64,000 nt of DNA from an uncultured bacterium (GCA_963726455.1 CAVSCK010000003.1:288001-352000), one strand, 5' to 3'. Shown: positions 794 through 60,645, counted from the stretch's first letter. Numbers and translations are program-made. Notes: generated by a model from the letters alone, not told the origin.

Positions 794-1376
794 TATAGCG
801 CGAATCATTACAATCCGCGATGTCAAAGACCAAGCGAACCTTTAAACGCGTGTTCCGGTGACGGATTCGCTCCGTTAGTCCGGCATGGATAGCTTAGTCG
901 TTGCCGTGTTGTCATCGGGGATTCCTGATCGGTAGAAGGTTGATTCACAAAACTCCCATTTTGCTCAGCCGCTAATCACCAGACCCACAGAGCCCTCCGG
1001 GGTGACCTTCGGTGCCGCAACCTGTGTTCTACTTATATGGGGTTTTGAGATTTATCCTCAGAAGGAGAGTAAGTGGTTGGGGGAGATGGAAGTGGGAACG
1101 TGGATGCTGGTGAAAGAGGTGGAAAAGAAGGTGATTGGAGGGAGAAAGAAAGTGAAAATATTTTTGAGAAATTCCGGCAGGTCACACACCGCGAGGAGAT
1201 GTAACACTCGAAGACAAGAGGTTAGGCGCGGCGCAGGACCTGCCGGAACGGGGAAAATATTTTGGCGGGTTTGTAGTGCTCTTGTTGGTAATTGCTCAGG
1301 TCAGGGTGAGAAGAATGAGCCGAGGGGAGCAGAAGTCGCCGGAAGTCCCCACTCGCTGAGTGGGGTACCGAGTGGC
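794..1376 (-). repeat. Conserved ~580-bp downstream arm, copy A
   Basis: Reverse-complement match to 51492-52637 (e.g. ttgctcagccgctaatcaccagacccaca.agccctccggggtgaccttcggtgccgcaacctg.gttctacttatatgggg). Confidence 0.9.
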
Positions 1377-1400
1377 AGAAAAAGTCTACGAACTGCTCAA

Positions 1401-2180
1401 CTAAATTGGGTGCTTGAGAATTATGTTGTCCACCAAGTCCTCGATGACACTCACGACTTTGCTTCGGTGAACTTCCACGGTAGAGGGATGAGCGCAAGTA
1501 TTCCGGATACCGAGTTTCTCATCAAGAAGTTTCCGGACGTCGTTAGTTATGACACCGGCCGAGCGAGCGACTTCGATAAACACGGATTCTTTCAAATCCG
1601 CGAAGTCGTCTTTCACGCTGATAGTAGTCTTTGCACAGTGATCCTTGCGCCTCGCAAGTGCTGCGTTGAACTCCGCGAGTTTGTGCTTGAGTATGAAGTC
1701 ATACAGATGATCTACGGTACCTGCCCACGCCATCACAATTGTCGCCCGGGGCGCATCCACCGCTAGGCACGAGGCGGCTTCAGCCATGAATTTCCGTTGA
1801 TTGTCGTCGCCAATTTTTGCGACAGTCTTCTTCAAATAGTTTAGAGCGTCAGCGATCATGGCATCGACCACTGCGGAACTAGGGCCCGTTCCTGACAAAT
1901 AGCTCTCGACCTCATCCAATCCAGGCATGTTAAGCGAGAAGGAGTCTCTTGCGCTTCCTCTCGCCAAAAGTGAGTTCTTCCCTTTGGCTAATAACCGGAG
2001 CTGAACTCTGAGGTCGGACGGCGGCTTGAGTAACCCGCGACAAACGTCTTCCATATCTGCTGCAGTGAATTCCACCATGCCTTTGTATTGGCGAAGATAA
2101 TAGGCGAGCAGGAGAATCTTCGATTTCCGCGAGAAATCCCGAAAATTGGGTATGCCTCTAAGAAATTCAAGCAGTGTCAT
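1401..2180 (-). CDS. wHTH + HEPN (DUF4145-like) putative RNase / defence protein
   Basis: 259 aa. C-terminal helical domain with EAASCL..DAPRATIVMAW and the RxxxxH motif RNTCAH. The N-terminal domain resembles the upstream gene product. Confidence 0.7.
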   Translation of the reverse strand: MTLLEFLRGIPNFRDFSRKSKILLLAYYLRQYKGMVEFTAADMEDVCRGLLKPPSDLRVQLRLLAKGKNSLLARGSARDSFSLNMPGLDEVESYLSGTGPSSAVVDAMIADALNYLKKTVAKIGDDNQRKFMAEAASCLAVDAPRATIVMAWAGTVDHLYDFILKHKLAEFNAALARRKDHCAKTTISVKDDFADLKESVFIEVARSAGVITNDVRKLLDEKLGIRNTCAHPSTVEVHRSKVVSVIEDLVDNIILKHPI

Positions 2181-2187
2181 GAATTCC

Positions 2188-2637
2188 TCACATGCTTGAG
2201 AGCGTTGAATCCGCGGACAGCGTAAGTGAGTACTTGCCGCGACTATGCATGCGAAGTAGTCCCTGCTTCACCGCATTCGAAAAATATTGGCTATGGATGT
2301 CCTTTGGTAGTCTCGCCTCTTTGCCCAACTTATTCACATCTTCACGGCTAAACGCAGACATGCCGCGATACACTTCGAGGTACTTTCCGAGGATCAGAAT
2401 TTGTGAGATTCCATCCTCCTTCCCCTTTTCGCGATAGAACTCAGCAGGAGTGGGTTCCTTTTCACCAGCGGGCGCAGAGGGTGGTTCAAGTATGTCTTGC
2501 TTGATCTTCGACGCGGGCGGGCGGGTGACCGCATCTTTCATACGCGAATAATAATCTGCCAACTGCGCTTTGATGAAATCATCTGAACCATCCAATTCGA
2601 TCTCATGTTCGCCGTGTTTGATCCTAATCTTGCTCAC
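2188..2637 (-). CDS. Hypothetical protein with predicted C-terminal winged-helix-like domain
   Basis: The likely start is GTG at 2637 after GGAGG (149 aa). N-terminal KIRIKHGEHEIELDGS strand module, Pro/Ala linker, then C-terminal EFYRE..QILILGKYLE..F...DV......KYSLTLSA. Confidence 0.7.
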   Translation of the reverse strand: MSKIRIKHGEHEIELDGSDDFIKAQLADYYSRMKDAVTRPPASKIKQDILEPPSAPAGEKEPTPAEFYREKGKEDGISQILILGKYLEVYRGMSAFSREDVNKLGKEARLPKDIHSQYFSNAVKQGLLRMHSRGKYSLTLSADSTLSSM

Positions 2638-2741
2638 CTGCAATCCTCCTCTTTTCCTTGTTGTTTCCAAGGCTGTCTTTGTGACTTCAGGATAGACCTA
2701 TTCACGAATTTCGCGTCTGGACAGCAGTCTAAGTGCATTTG

Positions 2742-2998
2742 CTCCTGACTCGACACTGGTCGATCCCTCCTATGGATTGTTAATGACAATATCGTCTTTA
2801 AGGTTGCGTTTCTGTTGAGGCGTGTCAAGTGCTATTTCAGTGTGGTAAACGATTCTGCAACAGGTCACAGTCGCAAGGCGCGAAGTGAGATCTGCCGTAA
2901 CAGTGAATCAGCCTGGATTCCCGCCTGCGCGGGAATGACATAGCTCCGGGACATACGAGATGATTCCGTCAGGAAAGGGTTCCTGACGGCGCACGAGT
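2742..2998 (-). promoter_or_regulatory. Conserved upstream arm, copy A: REPs, TTGACA -35 (2828-2823), palindrome ATTGT-N5-ACAAT (2776-2790), RBS + GTG
   Basis: Homologous to 48709-48963. The -35 is exact consensus; the -10 (AACCTT at 17-bp spacing) is weak. Confidence 0.6.
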
Positions 2999-47127: not shown

Positions 47128-48541
<1,414 letters not shown>

Positions 48542-48688: not shown

Positions 48689-48876
48689 CTTTCATATTCG
48701 CGCCGTCAACTCGTGCGCTGTCAGGAACCCCTTCCTGACGGAACCATCTTGCATGTCCCGGAGCTATGTCATTCCCGCGAAGGCGGGAATCCAGGCTGAT
48801 TTCGTTTGCCGAGGGCCCGGCTCGCCCCTTTCGACTGTGACCTATTGCAAGATCGTTCATTACACCGAAATAACAC

Positions 48877-48951
48877 TTGACACGCCTCGACAAGAACGCA
48901 ACCTTAAAGGCGATATTGTCGTTGACAATCCATGGGAGGGATCACAAAGTG
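48877..48951 (+). promoter_or_regulatory. TTGACA -35 (48877-48882), weak -10 AACCTT, operator-like palindrome ATTGTC-gtt-GACAAT (48915-48929), GGAGG + GTG (48949)
   Basis: All elements are conserved in copy A. Confidence 0.6.
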
Positions 48952-49014
48952 TCAGAACCGGAGAGGTTCGACCCATTGGGACGCGTAGTCTTCTGACTTT
49001 AACAAGGGAGAATT

Positions 49015-49272
49015 ATGAACGAGGAGTTGTTATACTCGATTGATCGTAGTCTTAAGGCTCTGCTTGGGCTTATCGTTTCAATTCGCGACGACAAGCCTCT
49101 TTCACTACGCGAACGAATCGCACGACTGCACGATTTGGGATTTAAGCCAAAGGAGATCAGCGAGATCCTAGGGCGGACGGGAAAGTTTGTTAGTAAGGAA
49201 CTGTCAGAACTTCGCAAGATAAAGAGCAAAGGTGGTAAGAAGAATGGCAAAGGTGCAAAACAAAAAGACTAG
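49015..49272 (+). CDS. Small HTH protein
   Basis: RERIARLHDLGFKPKEISEILGRTGKFVSKELSELR; RBS GGGAG. Confidence 0.7.
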   Translation: MNEELLYSIDRSLKALLGLIVSIRDDKPLSLRERIARLHDLGFKPKEISEILGRTGKFVSKELSELRKIKSKGGKKNGKGAKQKD

Positions 49273-49450
49273 CCAAAAGCCGGAAAAACAGATCAAGCCC
49301 AGCACCACGACGGAGGACTTGTTACGTGACCTGATGATGATCCAACTCGGATTAGCTGGTGTATCTCAGGAAAATATCAGAACCATTGTCGGCGTCGACA
49401 ATAACCGTGTAAGTTGGATTGTACGACACGTCAGAAAGGGGGATAAATAG
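49244..49450 (+). CDS. Small HTH protein
   Basis: LLRDLMMIQLGLAGVSQENIRTIVGVDNNRVSWIV. Confidence 0.65.
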   Translation: MAKVQNKKTSQKPEKQIKPSTTTEDLLRDLMMIQLGLAGVSQENIRTIVGVDNNRVSWIVRHVRKGDK

Positions 49451-49451
49451 A

Positions 49452-49646
49452 ATGGCCGCCAAGAAAACGACACCAACAAAGAGAGTGCCCCAGGATGATC
49501 CAGACTACCTGCTGAACTATTTGGTGGCGTTAGAACTCTTTAAGCTTGGGCTGTCGCAGGTGGATATTGGAAAGCGTTTGCGTCTGCAGACGGCTATCGT
49601 CAACCAAATGCTCAAGGGCATTGATAGGAAGAAGCTCAATCAATGA
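49452..49646 (+). CDS. Small HTH protein
   Basis: LLNYLVALELFKLGLSQVDIGKRLRLQTAIVNQML; RBS AAAGGGG. Confidence 0.65.
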   Translation: MAAKKTTPTKRVPQDDPDYLLNYLVALELFKLGLSQVDIGKRLRLQTAIVNQMLKGIDRKKLNQ

Positions 49647-49780
49647 AATCTGAAAACAGAGTCAGAATCCTCATTTGGAGCAGGAAATGGTCTCGTCCAC
49701 GGAGTGACATAACACGGACTTTCGGTACACCGATCAAGACTGTTCGAACGCTATTAACCCCGAAAGGGTGTAAGGCGTAA
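49643..49780 (+). CDS. Unannotated 45-aa ORF, possibly HTH-like
   Basis: ATGA overlap with the previous stop and ends 1 nt before the next ATG; RSDITRTFGTPIKTVRTLL. Confidence 0.4.
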   Translation: MKSENRVRILIWSRKWSRPRSDITRTFGTPIKTVRTLLTPKGCKA

Positions 49781-49781
49781 T

Positions 49782-50498
49782 ATGGCTCGAGCTAGGCTTG
49801 ATCCTAAGTTGATGCAGAAGGTGGCACAGAAACTGAGGCTCGCCAAGAACCGAGTTAATGTCAAGATCAGCAAGAAGGCAAACAGGCTCGGGATATCCTC
49901 TGAAGCAGCTCTTGCCATCTTGGCGAAAGAACTTGGTATCGCTACCGGGGTATATCAGAGAAGACTTGACCCAACGATCCAGTCAGAGATCAGGATGGCG
50001 CTGCCTACCATAATGCCCTCTCCGAACATACCTCCACCTAGAGTAAATCTACGTCACAAATCCGGTGGAACCGCAGTCGGAAATCAGCGTACCGCATTAA
50101 AGGCCGCTGCTGAATATGTCATTCAAGACGAGGAACTTCGGTCCAGATGCACTGATCTACTTCTGGGTAAGAAGCACTTTGATAGAGCTGTGAATCAAGC
50201 GACGTTGGTTCTTGAAGATAGACTGCGACACAAAGCACAGCCAACAGCGCGACTGGTCGGCGAGAATCTAGCTGGGCATGCTATCAACAGCGATCTTGTA
50301 AAGACAGTATTGAAGGTGAGCGATAATCAGGACGAACAGAGAGGCATTTCAGAGATTGTCAGAGGCATCGTTCCAGCATTTCGCAACACCACGCATCACC
50401 ACCTAGTCGATAGTTTTACTCGCGAAGACGCATTGAGGGTGTGTGGGTTCATCGATGTATTGTTACGCATCATCGATAAGTCAACGAAAGTAAGGTAG
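49782..50498 (+). CDS. TIGR02391/Ymh-family HEPN protein with N-terminal helical domain
   Basis: HFDRAVNQATLVLEDRLR...LVG..L...A.....EQRG....RG...AFRNTTHH (RxxxxH). Confidence 0.8.
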   Translation: MARARLDPKLMQKVAQKLRLAKNRVNVKISKKANRLGISSEAALAILAKELGIATGVYQRRLDPTIQSEIRMALPTIMPSPNIPPPRVNLRHKSGGTAVGNQRTALKAAAEYVIQDEELRSRCTDLLLGKKHFDRAVNQATLVLEDRLRHKAQPTARLVGENLAGHAINSDLVKTVLKVSDNQDEQRGISEIVRGIVPAFRNTTHHHLVDSFTREDALRVCGFIDVLLRIIDKSTKVR

Positions 50499-50552
50499 AG
50501 TTTACGATTTTAGGGATCGCGAGCATGTGCTTTAGGTTCCGCAACAACCAGT

Positions 50553-51437
50553 ATGCCACAGAACGTTACTGACATTCGCTCTAATCTCAACGACCAGATT
50601 GCAAATGCTGCCAAGATCATTGGAAGGTCCAAACAAAGACAAATTGTGTTCAAAGAGATTTACAGAGGCAAGCAGAGAACCAAGACGATTGCGGAACTGG
50701 TGGATGCCACTGGATTAACAAATATCCGCGTTTTGCAGGAAGGAAGTCGCCTAGCACAGCATCAACTAGTTGAAAAGGTTAAGAATGGCTATCGTAAGGA
50801 CCCATTCTATTCGCTTCATTATCGAAGGATTCTTAACTTCGCTCAAAATCCCAATCGACTCAAGAGACTGCCGACTAAAGTCTCTCCCAATATTGCGTCG
50901 CAGAATGTCCGTGTCACTTTTCCTGCTACTGCGGCGAAGGCTATTCACATTACAATGGACGATATTGACTCTTTTAGCATGGTACGACAAGTAAAGATCT
51001 CGACTTCTGCAGTTGACGATCAAAAGCTTTATGAAGCTCACATCAAGTCAGCCGTGAAGAGCTTGATTGGCGAGTCGGGCAAATTCAAAGACTGGGGTGG
51101 CGAGAAGAATGACCTTTTCACGACAAAGGTCAAAATTAAGGGGAGGCGCAGACCAGCGGCATTTGCATTCAAGGGTAGAGCAACGAAGGGAACCCTCACT
51201 CTTGACAAAATGGGTAAACGTGCGGATCAGGTAATTAGACTTTTCTCTGATTCGGTAGCAGAAGTGTACTTGATTGTCTACCAAGGGCAGATAGCTCCGG
51301 TGATATTAGATCAGATGAAGGCTCTAGCCGTCGCAAAAGCTATCGGTGGTGAGAATATCTACTATGGAGTGCTCGATGGGGATGATCTAAGGCGACTCAA
51401 AGCTGCTTACCCCAGCTTCTTTAAGGTGCATAAGTGA
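50553..51437 (+). CDS. Putative HTH + PD-(D/E)xK-like nuclease
   Basis: N-terminal KTIAELVDATGLTNIRVLQ; C-terminal E...K....GE...KDWGGEKNDLFT....AFAFKG...MGK.ADQV.RLF. Confidence 0.55.
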   Translation: MPQNVTDIRSNLNDQIANAAKIIGRSKQRQIVFKEIYRGKQRTKTIAELVDATGLTNIRVLQEGSRLAQHQLVEKVKNGYRKDPFYSLHYRRILNFAQNPNRLKRLPTKVSPNIASQNVRVTFPATAAKAIHITMDDIDSFSMVRQVKISTSAVDDQKLYEAHIKSAVKSLIGESGKFKDWGGEKNDLFTTKVKIKGRRRPAAFAFKGRATKGTLTLDKMGKRADQVIRLFSDSVAEVYLIVYQGQIAPVILDQMKALAVAKAIGGENIYYGVLDGDDLRRLKAAYPSFFKVHK

Positions 51438-51491
51438 AGGGAAAATTGCGTTGCCTCATGCGCTAATTCCAGTACCGTAGGTCAGGAGCCC

Positions 51492-52637
51492 GCCACGGTA
51501 CCCCACTCAGCGGGTGGGAACTTCCGGCGACTACTGCTCCCCTCAACTTTTTCATCTCACTCTGACCTGAGCAACTACCAACAAGACCACTACAAGCCCC
51601 CAAAATATTTTTCCCCGTTCCGGCACTTCCTGCGCCGCGCCTAACCTCTTGTCTGCGAGTGTCACATCTCATTGCGGCGGGTGAACTGCCGGAATTTCTC
51701 AAAAATATTTTCACTTTTTTTCTCCCTCCTATCACCCTCATTTCGTCTCCTGTGACTCCATCCACGTTTCTACTATCCTCTCCCCCAACCACTTACCCTC
51801 CTTTCGAGGATAAATCTCAAGACCCCATATAAGTAGAACGCAGGTTGCGGCACCGAAGGTCACCCCGGAGGGCTTTGTGGGTCTGGTGATTAGCGGCTGA
51901 GCAAAATGGGAGTTTTGTGAATCAACCTTCTACCGATCAGGAATCCCCGACGACAACACGGTTACGACTAAGCTATCCATGCCGAACTCTAACCGTGTCG
52001 TCCCGGGCATACTCGTCCTTCGCCGTGGTGAGTGAGTCTGTCGCTGTAAACCTTGTGGTTCGCGCTGTCGGATACCCGCCGTCCCCCCGACACGCTTTGA
52101 TGTACCGCGCCGTCAGGAATCCTTTCCTGACGGAACAGGTACTCCACAGCTTGCTGTGGGTGTACTCGCCACATCATCGCACCGGTGCCCCATCCGCTTG
52201 CGGTGGGTTTCGTATGTCTTCCTTACCGATTGTCTTCGGTTTGGCTCACGCCTGTCAAGACGGTCTCTATCGACGAACAGTTCACACCGTCGGAGGGAAC
52301 CCAGTAATAGAGCGTATCGCGACAACCGTGAATCCGATCAACTTCGCTACCAGGGCGAACAACGGCGAAGTTGGTGGCTCAATGGAGGAGCGTCCCCTTA
52401 TCCCCGCAACACGTTCGGCGTTTCCGGGTCTCGGCAGTGATCAAGTCCCCGATCCAGCTGGAGCATCGACTTCTCGTGGCGGTGCAGGCGCCATATCGGC
52501 CTGCTATGACGGCACAATGCCGCAGCACGAGATATAAGATACCCAGGCCGGACTAACGGAGTTAATCCGTCACCGGAACACGCGTTTAAAGGTTCGCTTG
52601 GTCTTTGACATCGCGAATTGTAATGATTCGCGCCATA
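51492..52637 (+). repeat. Conserved downstream arm, copy B, with an extra 566-bp segment (51985-52550)
   Basis: Homologous to 794-1376; GCCG occurs at 51981-51984 and 52547-52550. Confidence 0.9.
51917..52537 (+). pseudogene. ORF of uncertain status starting in the conserved arm (GGGAG + GTG), 206 aa; 41-aa version in copy A (823-948, minus)
   Basis: Start MNQPSTDQESP is shared by both copies. It contains an internal REP and no recognisable domain. Confidence 0.3.
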
Positions 52638-52790: not shown

Positions 52791-54122
52791 TCAGGCGTCG
52801 ATCTTCTTTTTGAAGGTCGGGATGAGGTCGGCGATTTTGACGCGGGATTGTTCCATCGTGTCGCGGTCGCGGATCGTGACGGTCTCATCCTCTTTGGTCT
52901 GGCCGTCGATGGTTATGCAATAAGGCGTGCCGATTTCATCCATGCGGCGGTAACGTCGACCGACCGCACCGGAATCATCATAGAATGCCTTGAAGTGTTC
53001 TTTGAGCTCGTGGAAGACCTTCATCGCGATTTCGGGCATGCCATCCTTGTTAACCAGCGGGAAGACGGCGACCTTGACCGGCGCGATTTTGGGTGAGAAT
53101 TTCAGCACCACGCGCGTTTCGCCTTTGACTTCTTCTTCCTGATAGGCGTCGACCAACAGCACCAACAGCGTGCGGTCACAGCCGGCGGAGGTTTCGATGA
53201 TGTAGGGAATGAATTTCGTCTTGGTCGGTTCGTCGAAATAGCTTAAATCCTTGCCGGTGGCCTCGGCGTGACGGCTGAGGTCGAAATCGGTGCGGTTGTG
53301 GATGCCTTCGAGTTCTTTCCAGCCGAACGGGAATTCGTATTCGATGTCGTAGGCCTTTTTGGCGTAATGCGCGAGTTCGTCCTTGCCATGTTCGTGATAA
53401 CGGAGCTTGTCCTTGTTGATGCCGAGTTCGTAGTACCATTTCAGGCGTTCGGCCTTCCAGTATTCGAACCACTGGTCGTCATCGAACGGATTGATAAAGA
53501 ACTGCATTTCCATCTGTTCGAATTCGCGCGTGCGGAAAATAAAATTGCCGGGCGTGATTTCGTTGCGGAAGGCCTTGCCGATCTGGGCAATGCCAAACGG
53601 CACTTTCTGGCGCGACGGGCCCATGACATTGAGGAAGTTGACATAGATGCCCTGTGCTGTCTCGGGACGCATGTAGACGACGGCGGATGAATCCTCGACT
53701 GGGCCCATGAAGGTTTTGAACATCAGGTTGAACTGGCGCGGTTCGGTGAGTTCGCCGCCGCATTCCAACGGTGATTTCGAGGGTTTCATCGGGCAGCGCG
53801 CGGTTTCCAGTTGATCGGCGCGGAAACGGGCTTTGCATTTTTTGCAGTCGACCATGGGATCGGTGAAGTTGGCGACATGGCCGGAGGTTTCCCAGACTTT
53901 GGGGTGCATGAGAATCGCGGCGTCAATGCCTTCGACATCGTCGCGTTTCTGGGTCATGGCCTTCCACCAGAAATCCTTGAGGTTGCGTTTGAGTTCAACG
54001 CCGTAAGGGCCGTAATCCCAGCAACTGCCGAGGCCGCCGTAAATCTCCGACGACTGAAATACAAAGCCGCGCCGTTTGCACAGGGAAACTATCTGCTCCA
54101 TTCTGTCAACTGTCTTCGCCAC
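52791..54122 (-). CDS. glyQS: Glycine--tRNA ligase, homodimeric type
   Basis: KRRGFVFQSSEIYGG, MRPETAQGI, AFRNEITPGNFIFRTREFEQME, GRRYRRMDEIGTP. GTG start after GGAGG. Confidence 0.97.
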   Translation of the reverse strand: MAKTVDRMEQIVSLCKRRGFVFQSSEIYGGLGSCWDYGPYGVELKRNLKDFWWKAMTQKRDDVEGIDAAILMHPKVWETSGHVANFTDPMVDCKKCKARFRADQLETARCPMKPSKSPLECGGELTEPRQFNLMFKTFMGPVEDSSAVVYMRPETAQGIYVNFLNVMGPSRQKVPFGIAQIGKAFRNEITPGNFIFRTREFEQMEMQFFINPFDDDQWFEYWKAERLKWYYELGINKDKLRYHEHGKDELAHYAKKAYDIEYEFPFGWKELEGIHNRTDFDLSRHAEATGKDLSYFDEPTKTKFIPYIIETSAGCDRTLLVLLVDAYQEEEVKGETRVVLKFSPKIAPVKVAVFPLVNKDGMPEIAMKVFHELKEHFKAFYDDSGAVGRRYRRMDEIGTPYCITIDGQTKEDETVTIRDRDTMEQSRVKIADLIPTFKKKIDA

Positions 54123-54903
54123 GGATTCCTCCATCCTGATGCATAAGATCCAACTTGCGCAGGAAATCGAACGATTTGAGATCAGCCCGTTTCCCGATGT
54201 GATACTCGGTGAGCGCGACCAGCATCTGCCGAATCTGTTCGGCCTGCGCCTTGGCCAGCGTGACTTTCCGATTATCACTGATGTCGGTACCCGCCAGTTT
54301 TTCCAGCGCCTTGACCGTGCCACGGTCGAGGGGAATTGTCAGGCGGTCGCCGACACATTTCTTACAAAGCAGCCCACCGCTCGCCGGGTCAAACATCAGC
54401 CGGTCGCCGACGATCTTGTCGCCGCACTCGACACAGGCGCCCAGCTCGGGGGCGTAGCCGGAGAATATACAGAGCAGATACCAGAAATGCAAAAGCTCCC
54501 TGCGGAAACTCTGCTCGGAGGAGTTGTTCATCAGACGCAGGAATTTCTTGAGTGTGAAGTAGAGCTGGCTGTTGACCTCGTCCTCGGGCAGGAAAAGATT
54601 GGCCAATTCGAGCGCCGCCGAACCGTAGCCGAATTTCTGTTCGTCCTGGGCGATGTTGTCGAAGCTTTCCACGACTTCGGCTTTGGAGATGTAATCGGCC
54701 GATTCGCTTTCGCGCTGGTAGAAGACGACATCGGCAACGACAAAGTATTGCAGCGATTCGGCGCTGGCGGAACCGGGGCGCGTGGCGGAACGCGCCACTA
54801 GCGGCAGTTTGCCGTAGTCACGCGTGAGACAGATCAGGAAGAGCGAGCTTTCCTGAACTTTGGTTCGTTTCAGAACCAGCAATTCGGTTTTCTTAAGTGA
54901 CAT
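54106..54903 (-). CDS. recO: DNA repair protein RecO
   Basis: LTRDYGKL..VAR, GYAPELGACVECG, GGLLCKKC, LKSFDFL. Confidence 0.9.
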   Translation of the reverse strand: MSLKKTELLVLKRTKVQESSLFLICLTRDYGKLPLVARSATRPGSASAESLQYFVVADVVFYQRESESADYISKAEVVESFDNIAQDEQKFGYGSAALELANLFLPEDEVNSQLYFTLKKFLRLMNNSSEQSFRRELLHFWYLLCIFSGYAPELGACVECGDKIVGDRLMFDPASGGLLCKKCVGDRLTIPLDRGTVKALEKLAGTDISDNRKVTLAKAQAEQIRQMLVALTEYHIGKRADLKSFDFLRKLDLMHQDGGIRGEDS

Positions 54904-56705: not shown

Positions 56706-56875
56706 TTAGACTGCGAATTTATCGAGCATTACGATACCCAGCAACATAAAATTTAAACCGTTACTTTAAGGGGTTGCGGCGGCGAACGATGGGCGCAAGT
56801 TGTTGTTATGCTGTGAGATAGAGGGACGTTCCGGGGTTGCCCGTCTGCGGTTAAGGCGGATATGGTTGGAGAAAA

Positions 56876-57716
56876 CGGGACAAACAGGAATGCTCATCCT
56901 ACTGGGGCGCCGAAAATGCGGCAGGGATGTTCACTGCGGACTTACGCGCTCCCTCACCCCCGGCCCCTCTCCCAAAGGGCGAGGGGAGAAACGAAATCGA
57001 CAAACAGGAATGTTCATCCTACTGAGGCGCCGAAAGTGCGGCAAGGGTGTTTCCTGCCGACTTGCGCGCTCCCTCACCCCCGGCCCCTCTCCCAAAAGGA
57101 GAGGAGAGGAATTGGGATCTTCGTCTTGCTGGAGCGCCGAAAGTGCAGCAAGGATGTTTCCTGCGGACTTACGCGCTCCCTCACCTCCGGCCCCTCTCCC
57201 AAAGGGCGAGGGGAGGAATGAAATCGACAAACGGGAATGTTCATCCTACTGGGGCGCCGAAAGTGCGGCAAGGGTGTTTCCTGCCGACTTGCGCGCTCCC
57301 TCACCCCCGGCCCCTCTCCCAAAGGGCGAGGGGAGGAATGAAATCGACAAACGGGAATGTTCATCCTACTGAGGCGCCGAAAGTGCGGCAAAGATGTTTC
57401 CTGCGGACTTACGCGCTCCCTCACCCCCGGCCCCTCTCCCAAAGGGCGAGGGGAGAAATGAAATCGACAAACAGGAATGTTTATCCTACTGAGGCGCCGA
57501 AAGTGCAACAAGGATGTTTCCTGCGGACTTACGCGCTCCCTCACCCCCGGCCCCTCTCCCAAAGGGCGAGGGGAGGAATGAAATCGACAAACGGGAATGT
57601 TCGTCCTGCTGGGATTGTGGTGGGACGTCGCGGCAGGCGAGGACGACTGCCGCGCACGAACTGAACGGACAATCGCCGCGCACGAGGGGTTTGGCGCGCT
57701 CCCTCACCCCCCGGCC
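56876..57716. repeat. Tandem array of ~120-bp composite REP units (BIME-like), left of blaI
   Basis: Unit = gacaaac(a/g)ggaatgttcatcctact + gcgccgaaagtgc + cctcacccccggcccctctcccaaagggcgagggga. Starts at 56879, 56999, (one shorter variant), 57226, 57346, 57466, 57586. Confidence 0.93.
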
Positions 57717-57729
57717 GTGATCGCGGAGA

Positions 57730-57789
57730 TGCTAAAAATTTAGCAAATAGCCCTTGACAGATTGAGGGCGAGATGCTAAATTATTAGCA
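57730..57789 (+). promoter_or_regulatory. sigma70 promoter (TTGACA 57754-57759, TAAATT 57777-57782) with two TGCTAA-N4-TTAGCA operators (57730-57745, 57774-57789)
   Basis: Two perfect palindromes; one lies upstream of the -35, the other overlaps the -10. 17-bp spacer; upstream of the BlaI-family repressor. Confidence 0.8.
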
Positions 57790-57850
57790 GATAGGGTTAA
57801 TTGAAAATGATAATGGGATTGGCCAGGAACAGGCAGGTCGTGGTAAGGCA

Positions 57851-58240
57851 ATGAAGAAACAGGCGATCGAGCATTTGAGTCGCAGGGAGAGGCAGATTAT
57901 GTATGTGATATACCGTCAGGGGGAGGCCTCGGTCACCGATGTTCGCGACAACCTGCCTGATCCTCCCGGCTATTCTGCGGTGAGGGCGCTGCTGGTACTG
58001 CTGGAGGGCAAAGGGTACGTGAGGCATCGGAAGGTCGGCCGAGCTTATTTGTATAAGCCGGTCGTCAGCCGAGATAAGACACGATACGCGGCGCTAAGAC
58101 AGATGATACATACGTTCTTTGACGGCTCGGTGGAAAATGTCGTAGCCGCGCTATTGGGGTCATCGCCAAAGCTGTCGGAAGATGAACTGGTGAGAATCGA
58201 AAAGCTTATAAAGGAGAAGCGGGGAGGAGATAAGGAATGA
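57851..58240 (+). CDS. BlaI/MecI/CopY family repressor
   Basis: LSRRERQIM, YSAVRALL..LE.KG.V, FFDGS...VAALL. Confidence 0.95.
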   Translation: MKKQAIEHLSRRERQIMYVIYRQGEASVTDVRDNLPDPPGYSAVRALLVLLEGKGYVRHRKVGRAYLYKPVVSRDKTRYAALRQMIHTFFDGSVENVVAALLGSSPKLSEDELVRIEKLIKEKRGGDKE

Positions 58241-59640
58241 GTCTGTTCGAGTCAATGGTGCGGCCGGCAGGATCGGCTGAGATACCGGTGCTACTGATCG
58301 TAAGCTTTCTGAAGGTCGCGATCTTCGTTGGCCTGGCACTTCTGGTCAGGAATTTCATGTCGGACGCCCACCCGGATCGACGGCACTTGTTGATGCGGCT
58401 GGCGCTGGCGATTTCCGTACTCCTGCCAGTGACGTCGTTCGCGTTTTCGATCTTCAACTCGCGACTGATCAGTGCGATTTCGACCACGATATTCCTATCT
58501 GTCCCGGGATTGATCGCAACGAGTTCAGCCGGCGACCGGCTACCTTCGAGCGCAGTCGCTGATTTTCCATGGATGGGATTGGCGGTAGTGATTTGGCTGG
58601 CGGGCGCCAGCGCGGTTCTGCTCCGGCTTGGGTATGGGCTGATATTGAGATCGAAACTCTTGCGCCAATCACAACCTTTTGACACGGACGACGGTCAGCA
58701 GTTGGCACAGCAGCTTACACAGGAACTTGGAATTAAGAGGCGTATTCGGTTGGCGATCTCATCGGCGATCAGCGGTCCCGTCGCCTGGAGTCTTCCAAGG
58801 GCGACAGTAATATTGCCGTCGGAGTCACTCACCTGGAGTCGGGATGAATTGAGAGTAGCGCTGGTACATGAGTTCAGTCACATAAAACGTCGCGACGATG
58901 TTTGGATGCTGATGGGGGTACTGGCCACGGCGATTCATTGGTTCAATCCACTGGTGTGGTTGACAAAGGGGAAACTGATTCTCGATGCGGACAGCGCCTG
59001 CGACAGCATGGTTGTTAATTCGGGCTCTGACGGAAACATGTATGCCCGCTTCATGCTGGCGATGGCACGTCGATGCAGTATGACCAAGATATCGATAGCG
59101 ATCGGATCAGAGATTTTCGGCAGAAAGCAATTGGAGGAAAGAATCATGGCAATTCAAAATGGAAGCGTTCGCTCGCATCAGGTGAGGCGATCACTCGTCG
59201 GATTAGCATGGATACTGTCATTGTCCATCAGTATTCCGGTGGCTGGGGCGCGAATTGCGGGCAATACCGATGCGGCTGATAATGCACAGAAGACCGAAAC
59301 GGCAAAACCCGCGCAATTTCCAGCGCCGGACTCGTTCGTAGACGTGTCGGAACAGCCCGTGATGCTGCACGCGGAGAATCCGGCGTATCCGGACTCGGCC
59401 AAGAAGGCCGGTATAGAGGGTAGTGTGTGGGTACAGGTGCTTGTTGATACAGCGGGCCATGCGGCTGACGTCAGAATCAAGCAGACGTCCAACTTTGAGC
59501 CGTTTGACAAGTCCGCTCTGGCGGCGGCCAAGAAGACTGCCTGGAAGCCGGCAGAGTTTGAGGGGCGCAAAGTAGCGGTGTGGGTTGTTTACCAGATCAA
59601 ATTCACCTTGGGAGATAAGACCGCTAAGCCGGGGAAATAG
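58237..59640 (+). CDS. BlaR1-like M56 metallopeptidase fused to TonB C-terminal domain
   Basis: HEFSHIKRRD, HWFNPLVW, ACD, LEERI; C-terminal P.YP..A..AGIEG.V.V...VD..G....WKPA...G..V. Confidence 0.92.
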   Translation: MSLFESMVRPAGSAEIPVLLIVSFLKVAIFVGLALLVRNFMSDAHPDRRHLLMRLALAISVLLPVTSFAFSIFNSRLISAISTTIFLSVPGLIATSSAGDRLPSSAVADFPWMGLAVVIWLAGASAVLLRLGYGLILRSKLLRQSQPFDTDDGQQLAQQLTQELGIKRRIRLAISSAISGPVAWSLPRATVILPSESLTWSRDELRVALVHEFSHIKRRDDVWMLMGVLATAIHWFNPLVWLTKGKLILDADSACDSMVVNSGSDGNMYARFMLAMARRCSMTKISIAIGSEIFGRKQLEERIMAIQNGSVRSHQVRRSLVGLAWILSLSISIPVAGARIAGNTDAADNAQKTETAKPAQFPAPDSFVDVSEQPVMLHAENPAYPDSAKKAGIEGSVWVQVLVDTAGHAADVRIKQTSNFEPFDKSALAAAKKTAWKPAEFEGRKVAVWVVYQIKFTLGDKTAKPGK

Positions 59641-59665
59641 TCGGTGGGAAGACAAACGGAAAAAC

Positions 59666-60645
59666 TTACGCGCTCCCTCACCTCCTGCCCCTCTCCCACG
59701 GTGAGAGGGGAGAAATTGGGATCTTCGTCTTGCTGGGGCACCGATAGTGCGGCGAGGTTATTTCTTGAGGCCCGCGCGCTCCCTCACCCCCGGCCCCTCT
59801 CCCAAAGGGCGAGGGGAGAAATGAAATCGACAAACGGGAATGTTCGTCCTACTGGGGCGCGGAAAGTGCGGCAAGGGTGTTTCCTGCGGACTTACGCGCT
59901 CCCTCACCCCCGGCCCCTCTCCCAAAGGGCGAGGGGAGAAATTGGGATCTTCGTCTTGCTGGGGCACCGATAGTGCGGCGAGGTTATTTCTTGAGGCCCG
60001 CGCGCTCCCTCACCCCCGGCCCCTCTCCCAAAGGGCGAGGGGAGGAATTGGGATCTTCGTCTTGCTGGGGCACCGATAGTGCGGCGAGGTTATTTCTTGA
60101 GGCCCGCGCGCTCCCTCACCCCCGGCCCCTCTCCCAAAGGGCGAGGGGAGAAATGAAATCGACAAACAGGAATGTTCATCCTACTGGGGTTGTGGTGGGA
60201 CGTCGCGGCAGGCGAGGACGACTGCCGCGCACGAGGGGATTGGCGCGCTCCCTCACCTCCTGCCCCTCTCCCACGGTGAGAGGGGAGTTAGTAGGATAAA
60301 CATTCTTGTTTGTCCCGTTCGAGCGTGAAGTTCAGTTGAGGAGCAATGGACAAACAGGAATGTTCGTCCTACTGGGGTTGTGGTGGGACGTCGCGGCAGG
60401 CGAGGACGACTGCCGTGCACGGGGGATTGATGCGCACCCTCACCCCCCGCCCCTCTCCCAAAGGGCGAGGGGAGAAATGAAATCGACAAACAGGAATGTT
60501 CATGCTGCTGGGGGTGTGGTGGGACGTCGCGGCAGGCGAGGACGACTGCCGTGCACGGGGGATTGATGCGCACTTTCACCCCCGGCCCCTCTCTCAAAGG
60601 GCGAGGGGAGGAATGAAATCGACAAACGGGAATGTTCATCCTACT
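59666..60645. repeat. Second array of composite REP units, right of the M56 gene
   Basis: About eight cctcacccc..ctctccc..gagggga hairpins mixed with gacaaac..cctact and cggcaggcgaggacgactgccg REPs, in the same orientation as the left array. Confidence 0.92.

Follow-up and report, generated by a model that had tools for sequence, protein, structure and literature searches.

The window analysed here is a 64-kb stretch (contig C3:288001-352000) of G000, the Zixibacteria-type genome of an uncultured bacterium (3.64 Mb in 5 contigs, 53-54% GC). It contains two sites in which unrelated genes lie between the same left and right arms: copy A (794-2998), whose cargo is on the minus strand, and copy B (48709-52637), whose cargo is on the plus strand. 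At least three such sites are present in G000, and many more are present in the genus. The interpretation in which we place about even confidence is that they are variable-gene hot spots, where cargo flanked by repeat modules specific to the lineage is swapped, probably through homologous recombination. In the following, LEFT designates the inner module of the left arm, R the distal repeat of the right arm, and X the segment between the cargo and R. G000 was compared with three congeners (G001, G002, and G003), which are metagenome-assembled genomes (MAGs) labelled Zixiibacteriota or uncultured bacterium, and the individual loci or contigs compared are given L-numbers. Searches of the literature on Zixibacteria, repeats, and defence, and on defence, hot spots, repetitive extragenic palindromic (REP) sequences, and REP-associated tyrosine transposases (RAYTs) yielded nothing describing a LEFT-cargo-R architecture.

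Common arms and unrelated cargo in copies A and B

A repeat search linked 794-1370 with 51496-52637 and 2752-2998 with 48709-48953 through five pairs of reverse-complement matches, i.e. 2906-2998/48709-48801 (93 nt, 94% identity), 2752-2883/48822-48953 (132 nt, 84%), 1122-1370/51496-51744 (249 nt, 88%), 877-1106/51759-51988 (230 nt, 93%), and 794-896/52535-52637 (103 nt, 93%). Pairwise alignments agree with this search, and left arm, cargo, and right arm follow one another in the same relative order in both copies. BLAST gave no match between the two cargo regions. The ORF (open reading frame) maps indicate that the cargo is co-oriented with the arms in both copies, and it is moderately AT-richer than its surroundings, with GC contents of 0.44-0.53 compared with 0.55-0.62 in the flanking genes and 0.535 in the genome. 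REP units aside, neither a terminal inverted repeat nor a target duplication was found in copies A and B, and scans of the cargo ORFs with domain libraries detected no integrase or transposase in either copy. All of these features had been described in the original prediction, and they are borne out here.

Both arms are composite. BLAST searches against the whole genome identified the first ~110 nt of the left arm as two REP-type hairpins with dozens of copies genome-wide (left-arm positions 6-46 and 58-97 match many sites on contigs C1, C3, C4, and C5), and the same two units were delimited by repeat search, alignment, and BLAST at 2890-2998 (minus strand) in copy A and at 48709-48815 (plus strand) in copy B. 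The next ~130 nt are confined, within G000, to copies A and B. The right arm comprises a terminator-like hairpin, a C-rich spacer, and then R. Hairpin and spacer make up X, a segment of ~340 nt located at 1034-1376 (minus strand) in copy A and 51492-51831 (plus strand) in copy B; the segment is strongly C-rich on the cargo strand, and the GC skew is +0.44 (on the plus strand of the window) and -0.34, respectively. Strong C-richness is typical of Rho-dependent termination regions. X is common only to copies A and B and a third right arm of G000 (X plus R; C4:1513696-1514980), which lies directly 3' of the HamA/HamB genes described below. In copy B, R is full length (51832-52637, plus strand; alignment, BLAST, and covariance model) and carries a REP inserted in one predicted hairpin loop, and in copy A (794-1033, minus strand; repeat search, alignment, and nhmmer) the 5' 157 nt of R are joined to its 3' ~103 nt. 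The 546 nt that are extra in copy B (51989-52534) belong to R and recur in part in the C4 copy, which indicates that R of copy A has been internally deleted.

The cargo of copy A consists of two ORFs on the minus strand. The first (2188-2670, 160 aa) possibly encodes a winged-helix protein (AbiEi_4, E 0.0089, below the cut-off), and the second (1401-2180, 259 aa) encodes an HEPN-like protein in which an R-x4-H motif was recognised by eye. Scans of Pfam, NCBIfam, and PADLOC gave no match to this 259-aa protein. It has 347 homologues, those listed all carrying the precomputed label PF27235, and is 26% identical over 117 aa to a cargo protein of L039, with which its R-x4-H motif aligns. Copy A had been described as a winged helix-turn-helix (wHTH) gene followed by a wHTH-HEPN gene; of this description, the analysis yielded only the sub-threshold AbiEi_4 match and the motif, and no HEPN family match was obtained.

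The cargo of copy B, all on the plus strand, begins with three small overlapping ORFs (49015-49646; 85, 72, and 75 aa), possibly encoding helix-turn-helix (HTH) proteins, for which only sub-threshold family matches were found. These are followed by a 238-aa HEPN-type protein of the TIGR02391/Hypoth_Ymh family (49782-50498), which scores above both curated cut-offs (PF09509, E 1.8e-16, 60.5 bits vs. 25; TIGR02391, 45.5 bits vs. 39.45) and also matches PD-Lambda-3_B of PADLOC (E 5.7e-6). The last gene encodes a 294-aa protein (50553-51437) with an N-terminal HTH-like part according to weak library matches. Its nearest Atlas cluster is 'Restriction endonuclease family protein' (score 0.98, a language-model lead only), and no PDB relative was found. 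Accordingly, of the cargo predicted for copy B, the TIGR02391 protein was confirmed, whereas the small HTH ORFs stay below threshold and the nuclease-like protein remains such a lead.

The cargo associated with the third right arm of G000 is a complete Hachiman pair (C4:1509988-1513591, corresponding to L001:4988-8591), in which the adjacent genes for HamA (334 aa; PADLOC, E 1.3e-112; Pfam HamA, DUF1837, E 6.5e-61) and HamB (845 aa; PADLOC, E 0) are followed by X and R; the pair sits between a multihaem cytochrome cluster and a RidA-family gene.

Several comparisons bear on the origin of the cargo. Metagenome contig L134 shares 77% DNA identity with copy A over a segment that begins ~10 nt into ORF 1 and ends at the ORF 2 stop codon, with no similarity outside it, and the two ORFs are conserved together in L134 and L135, both of which lack the arms. 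Homologues that are 87-90% identical to the 259-aa protein occur in MAGs labelled Phycisphaerae, and others occur in further phyla. Judged by these comparisons, the cargo is foreign, i.e. horizontally acquired, and the arms are local to the host lineage.

Both copies lie between convergent genes, as had been proposed. Copy A is flanked by the end of a 54-aa ORF on one side and a gene for a GT4-type glycosyltransferase on the other; the name pyrC given to the former was not confirmed, because it is a fragment of 54 aa without a Pfam hit. Copy B is flanked by genes for a beta-eliminating lyase and a class II tRNA synthetase.

The LEFT and R modules

LEFT was located at 2760-2836 (minus strand; nhmmer E 5.7e-21, aligned with six other copies) in copy A and at 48869-48944 (plus strand; nhmmer E 3.3e-22, alignment, and BLAST) in copy B. 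Within its conserved core of ~80 nt, TTGACA is followed 21 nt downstream by an A/T-rich hexamer; the core also includes the palindrome ATTGTC-N3-GACAAT and the motif GGGAGG. Relatives of LEFT exist in the congeners (2, 4, 3, and 7 copies by BLAST in G000-G003, respectively), and an nhmmer profile gave 18 matches in the DNA collected, including one weak and one partial match. The perfect TTGACA and the A/T-rich hexamer suggest that LEFT is a promoter combined with a palindromic operator or 5' hairpin, in line with the promoter originally placed in the upstream arm. However, the hexamer spacing of 21 nt is non-canonical, and LEFT was not called in a scan for sigma-70 promoters and intrinsic terminators, in which the site counts equalled the shuffle expectation; for these two reasons, we infer rather than assert the promoter and operator functions. 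In addition, LEFT ends 20-133 nt upstream of the start codon of the first cargo gene, and its GGGAGG motif is therefore not the ribosome-binding site of that gene, which likewise counts against the interpretation preferred here.

R is non-coding and about 770-890 nt in full length. The ~115 nt at its 5' end are nearly invariant across copies and form its most conserved part. Upstream of R, a few hairpin modules are combined into mosaics of varying order and number, with 90 to 1207 nt separating the cargo stop codon from R, and the sequences past the 3' end of R also vary among copies. The sequence TTGTAG at both ends of R was rejected as a target duplication, being present after only some copies. 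No ORF-bearing R was found among the copies examined.

The distribution of R is restricted to one genus. When the first 509 nt of the copy B right arm were searched against 41 genomes, matches were found in G000 and all three congeners and in none of the 37 others; in the congeners, only the distal part of the arm, i.e. R, was matched, in multiple copies that often lie at contig ends. An exact 28-mer of the R 5' core gave 46 matches in 44 stretches of a species-representative genome collection, of which 13, 16, and 14 stretches belong to the three congeners and one to a bin labelled as another phylum. The contig of this last bin (L089) holds the exact R core together with an upstream ORF, and is likeliest a mis-binned contig of the genus studied here. 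In a BLAST search of a full-length R copy against 285 genomes of the phylum, R proper was matched only within the genus; among the matches listed, no distant R homologue was found in the 281 other genomes, where all matches fall on the REP hairpin of ~25-35 nt inserted in the query copy. A covariance model built from a 151-nt piece of the R 3' domain gave 2, 16, 14, and 11 matches in G000-G003, respectively, and none in 17 genomes from four other genera of the family, although remote relatives could be missed because the model is nearly at sequence level (effective sequence number 1.1). Searches of Rfam (4227 families) gave no R match at the gathering score over the window or at E values up to 1 over copy B; at E values up to 10, the sole match of a relative's full-length R was a chance-level small RNA (15.8 bits vs. 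a gathering score of 52).

From an alignment of 14 R copies, RNAalifold predicted a consensus structure of 128 pairs, including long-range helices, one of which surrounds a loop that harbours REP insertions differing from copy to copy. In a 122-pair version counted over the 14 copies, 96.4% of the cells pair. Pairs changed on both sides number 20, compared with 7.9 +/- 2.0 in shuffles (0 of 500 reach 20) and 4-9 in slid controls, and wobble favours the cargo strand (167 G.U vs. 22 A.C cells). Each of these figures has to be discounted to some extent: the structure was predicted on the same alignment that was used for counting, the shuffle statistic overstates the support because R copies are related, and the G.U excess is partly built in because the structure was predicted on the plus strand. 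The minimum-free-energy fold of the 5' 200 nt was no better than those of shuffled sequences (z = 0.29), indicating that single-sequence energy is uninformative for R and that the structural support comes from the alignment. On this modelling, R is predicted to have a conserved long-range secondary structure with compensatory changes that is RNA-like on the cargo strand, and R is presumably transcribed. It could act as an insulator, provide portable homology, form a 3' RNA domain, or be a selfish element.

In being large, multi-helix, multi-copy, and supported by covariation, R resembles large non-coding RNAs (ncRNAs) and mobile introns. It differs from the large ncRNAs described to date in lying in intergenic DNA, in being found in one genus only, and in matching no Rfam family. 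An ORF-less group II intron was considered and rejected, since R has no Rfam match and a reverse transcriptase (RVT_1) was found in none of the four genomes.

Occupied, variable, and empty sites in the genus

Of the 13 LEFT sites with at least ~3.6 kb of downstream DNA, nine have a co-oriented R within 1.7-3.5 kb (copies A and B, L030, L034, L035, L036, L038, L039, and L045), always in the orientation of the cargo, and four lack R (L043, L044, L046, and L047). Four further LEFT copies are cut by contig ends, and a weak LEFT match in L028 is divergent. The pairing expected by chance is about 1% (at most ~18 R cores per 3.5 Mb at random positions), a value that hot-spot clustering would raise. 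The 46 core matches of R comprise 28 for which the nearest upstream ORF of at least 120 aa is co-oriented with R, 9 for which it is opposite, 4 without an ORF, and 5 that are too short; with the co-oriented L082 dropped as a slicing artefact, R lies downstream of a co-oriented ORF at 27 of the 36 evaluable sites.

These regularities count against a possible though rather unlikely alternative, in which independent selfish repeats (like REP/bacterial interspersed mosaic elements (BIMEs) or like Correia elements) pile up in permissive hot spots and both pairing and effects on cargo are by-products. The compensatory changes in the 0.8-kb structure, which imply selection on R itself, and the lack of a transposase, terminal inverted repeat, or target duplication for R also speak against it. 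On the other hand, it would readily account for the mosaic of short modules preceding R and for the wide range of distances between stop codon and R. R outnumbers LEFT, and many R copies occur without it; R also directly adjoins core genes and a synteny breakpoint (L026 and L031), is inverted at the same hot spot in different species (L039 vs. L029), and occurs as truncated tandem pieces. Copy numbers point in the same direction (3 in G000 vs. at least 11-16 in the congeners, where contigs often end inside R), as does the identity of the R 5' part, which is 96-98% among G000 copies and about 80% between these and congener copies, suggesting within-genome spread or gene conversion. REP/RAYT systems, furthermore, are present in these genomes. 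The same observations do not bear out the original prediction in the form given: the arms are mosaics of independent modules (REPs, hairpin modules, LEFT, and R) rather than one fixed platform, and pairing is incomplete, with R absent after LEFT at 4 of 13 sites and R itself turning up in the absence of LEFT, beside core genes, in inverted or truncated form, and as tandem copies.

Nor are copies A and B the only two copies, a possibility that had been raised against the platform idea: besides the right arm that follows the Hachiman genes, there are seven LEFT-cargo-R sites in the three congeners. The recurrence of the same flanks around exchangeable, mostly defence-type cargo is thereby supported. 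The genes situated between LEFT and R, or adjoining one of them, in the congeners include those for putAbiC/AbiP and AbiEii/AbiEi proteins; two type IIG restriction-modification enzymes and methylase-endonuclease fusions with a RAMA-domain protein; a KAP NTPase; a PD-T4-6-type kinase; an HD/dGTPase-like protein with a DarG-like protein; a TIR protein; an SIR2_2 protein; a PbeA-like helicase with TPR repeats; and STAND/TPR-like proteins. Genes for a beta-propeller protein, an S26 signal peptidase, and a member of the beta-lactamase family are found as well, along with several of unknown type, and from this mixed list the cargo is enriched in defence genes but not exclusively defensive.

Corresponding sites in different genomes are variably occupied. 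At the locus of copy A (termed pyrC/GT4 in the original prediction, in which empty sites were to be sought), the intergenic gap of 2905 bp in G000 corresponds to ~113 bp in G003 and ~245 bp in G001. Conversely, a gap of 220 bp in G000 corresponds to a 5.1-kb insert ending in R in G001 and to other cargo with R in G003, and a gap of 330 bp corresponds to a 2.5-kb insert in G001 that contains LEFT and a beta-lactamase-family gene without R. Other shared hot spots contain different cargo followed by the same R (L025 vs. L035 and L027 vs. L033). One shared site carries a kinase gene and R in G001 but LEFT, a beta-propeller gene, and R in G003, and interspecies homology resumes there about 40 nt before the R core. 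The site of copy B (tpl-glyQS), which was also to be inspected in relatives, proved to be variable: G001 has AbiE and an inverted R, and G003 has a methylase-endonuclease gene, a RAMA-protein gene, and R. In G003, as in G000, R faces the tRNA synthetase gene, indicating that R is probably ancestral at this site. The Hachiman locus does not correspond to a clean empty site in G002, as only a 119-nt remnant of the upstream cytochrome gene is kept there, with a methylase-endonuclease gene and then R behind it.

Cargo of the methylase-endonuclease type is thus found ahead of R at different sites in G002 and G003. Between these two genes (L153:4094-5829 and L032:2249-3996), the ends are 84-85% identical and a middle part of ~430 nt is unalignable; this part looks like a swapped target-recognition region. 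Another variable site lies between a typA/bipA-like gene and lepA (L002, C3:440001-452000 of G000). In G000, it contains genes for a PD40-repeat protein and a RuvB-like AAA protein together with the REP doublet that also makes up the outer left arm; in G001, it contains LEFT with an HEPN-like pair and R, and in G003 an inverted R.

The beta-eliminating lyase next to copy B (47152-48541) is divided between two overlapping ORFs of 430 and 79 aa, both matching PF01212, which points to a frameshift, a sequencing error, or a pseudogene. At the corresponding site of G001, no DNA matching the lyase was found, and the lyase may therefore itself be variable cargo. The 510-aa ORF of the tRNA synthetase (52791-54323) has congener matches (L101-L103) that cross four TGA codons and, in two of them, one TAG codon; the true start probably lies further downstream than the start of this ORF and may be preceded by a conserved leader that is non-coding. 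Elsewhere in the window, several families of long tandem or dispersed direct repeats, with units of about 120, 136, 189, and 240 nt, occupy 56767-60616. No tRNA or tmRNA genes were found in the 64-kb window.

It is highly improbable that the architecture is an artefact of misassembly across repeats or a decayed known element, such as a prophage, insertion sequence (IS), or plasmid remnant. Repeats do break the congener assemblies, and the lyase next to copy B is split; but G000 is assembled in 5 contigs, every copy is bordered by unique sequence on either side, and the same architecture recurs in independent assemblies. As for a decayed element, the copies contain no transposase or phage gene, and searches of the copies and R against 50,697 phage records, 72,556 plasmid records, and viral contigs gave no match.

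Route of cargo exchange and relation to known systems

In the mechanism that we favour, foreign, mostly anti-phage genes would enter hot spots between core genes, and the bracketing repeat modules would belong to the host lineage and not to the cargo. REP hairpins and LEFT would stand upstream, LEFT supplying a promoter and a palindromic operator or 5' hairpin, and the terminator-like hairpin, the C-rich spacer, and R would stand downstream. RecA-type homologous recombination of incoming or paralogous DNA would then replace the cargo, with a core gene or LEFT/REP serving as the homology arm on one side and the multi-copy R on the other, so that no dedicated recombinase would be needed.

The dedicated mobilisation originally envisaged need not be invoked, since homologous recombination between repeated or core flanks fits the data without a new enzyme. 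A dedicated cassette-mobility system would require a trans-acting enzyme acting site-specifically at the REP/LEFT boundary and the R 5' core, the candidates being a tyrosine recombinase, a RAYT-type HUH enzyme, or an RNA-guided activity using R. We judge such a system to be unlikely, although several features are compatible with it. The ~115-nt 5' core varies hardly at all among copies and is repeatedly a breakpoint, with interspecies homology at shared hot spots resuming ~40 nt before it; solo or truncated R cores exist; foreign cargo is bounded near its ORF ends, with REP hairpins directly at the left boundaries; and the methylase-endonuclease cargo accompanies R at different sites in G002 and G003. 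G000 also encodes four tyrosine recombinases (Phage_integrase matches at C2:120464, C4:226244, C4:735336, and C4:1043204, with none on C3) and four RAYT-like Y1_Tnp proteins, of which the congeners have 3-8. However, no recombinase was found in or next to any cassette examined, and the domain searches, which answer the original call for a copy encoding a recombinase or RAYT, revealed no linked recombinase. The absence of a reverse transcriptase from the four genomes, the absence of a conserved junction motif, terminal inverted repeat, or duplication, the variation of the right-hand junctions, and the fact that no empty LEFT-R platform was seen are further arguments against a dedicated system.

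Each RAYT gene of G000 is flanked by its own REP type, none of which equals LEFT or R, and a link between RAYTs and these modules was rejected because all four loci carry other REPs. In G001, a RAYT-like gene lies 3.4 kb from R (L141), but this proximity was judged to be incidental because the genes between them are oppositely oriented. A tandem array with a period of 56 nt (119-897; 10 overlapping registers in the repeat search), whose unit contains a REP, abuts the R end of copy A, and the REP of this array also flanks a RAYT-like gene at C3:~814 kb of G000, as in a REPtron.

Certain observations weigh against exchange by homologous recombination. This route is inferred rather than observed, and the arms of copies A and B, being 84-94% identical, argue against recent exchange between these two copies. 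At the empty sites, exact junctions and small duplications are unreadable because the intergenic DNA cannot be aligned with that of G000. R is frequently solitary, inverted, truncated, or tandemly repeated, a pattern no less compatible with a self-propagating repeat than with a cassette flank, and the breakpoints at the R 5' core could indicate a site-specific process.

A bolder proposal, which we regard as improbable, is that LEFT and R form a lineage-specific expression and capture platform that is recombinase-independent or RNA-dependent. On this view, R would represent a novel class of large structured RNA, ~0.6-0.9 kb in length and missing from Rfam, with its 5' core acting as the site of capture or exchange (RNA-guided, ribozyme-like, or enzymatic) and its body regulating or sensing via the 3' end of the cargo.

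[quoted passage not shown] As in the MMEs so described, the same flanks here enclose different cassettes or none (the copy A site being empty in G003 and G001), and mobility genes are lacking. In contrast to the MMEs, many cassettes here are also bracketed by the lineage-specific, non-coding LEFT and R modules, and recombination would be the probable route; the recurrence of LEFT and R at different loci makes the homology portable between sites, not only allelic. The core defence hot spots of Pseudomonas aeruginosa, which occupy fixed positions between core genes and reportedly contain diverse anti-phage systems (PMC10250203), are similar in their contents, since the cargo found here includes Hachiman, an Abi protein, AbiE, restriction-modification, a KAP NTPase, TIR, and SIR2; the description consulted mentions neither a shared promoter-like module nor a structured repeat of 0.8 kb beside the cargo.

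REP/BIME sequences and RAYTs provide a parallel for the outer parts of the arms only, in that multi-copy intergenic hairpin mosaics and RAYT-like genes with their own REPs are present. Correia elements of Neisseria can reportedly create promoters and control adjacent genes (PMC2649163), and LEFT would likewise supply a promoter. However, R, at ~0.8 kb and with long-range pairing, is far larger than REP or Correia units, and neither LEFT nor R has terminal inverted repeats or lies beside a RAYT gene of G000. A miniature inverted-repeat transposable element or IS was rejected for R and for the whole cassette on the grounds that terminal inverted repeats and duplications are absent beyond REP, the sequences 3' of R vary, and no ORF-bearing copy was seen among those examined. 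The likeness to integrons that had been suggested holds in logic only, i.e. for co-oriented exchangeable cassettes, a recurrent 3' element, and a putative upstream promoter. No intI gene adjoins the cassettes, which are single and scattered, many with their own LEFT, and do not form an array behind one promoter. Moreover, attC sites are 60-140 nt long and conserved in structure, whereas the 3' element described here is conserved in sequence and about ten times that length.

It is known that defence genes turn over in chromosomal hot spots, but how cargo enters and leaves without mobility genes and where foreign genes obtain their expression signals are mostly unexplained. The unusual feature of the present sites, which belong to a little-studied uncultured lineage, is that the cargo is framed by the host's own non-coding modules, which recur at many loci, and the shared promoter- and operator-like element hints at common control of unrelated defence genes. 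If the modules provide portable homology together with expression signals, they would constitute a simple, enzyme-free alternative to integrons for shuffling defence genes, and if R is an active RNA, it would be a large bacterial RNA of a kind not seen before. In any case, the R core and LEFT offer inexpensive markers, at the sequence level, with which variable loci rich in defence genes can be located in this genus.

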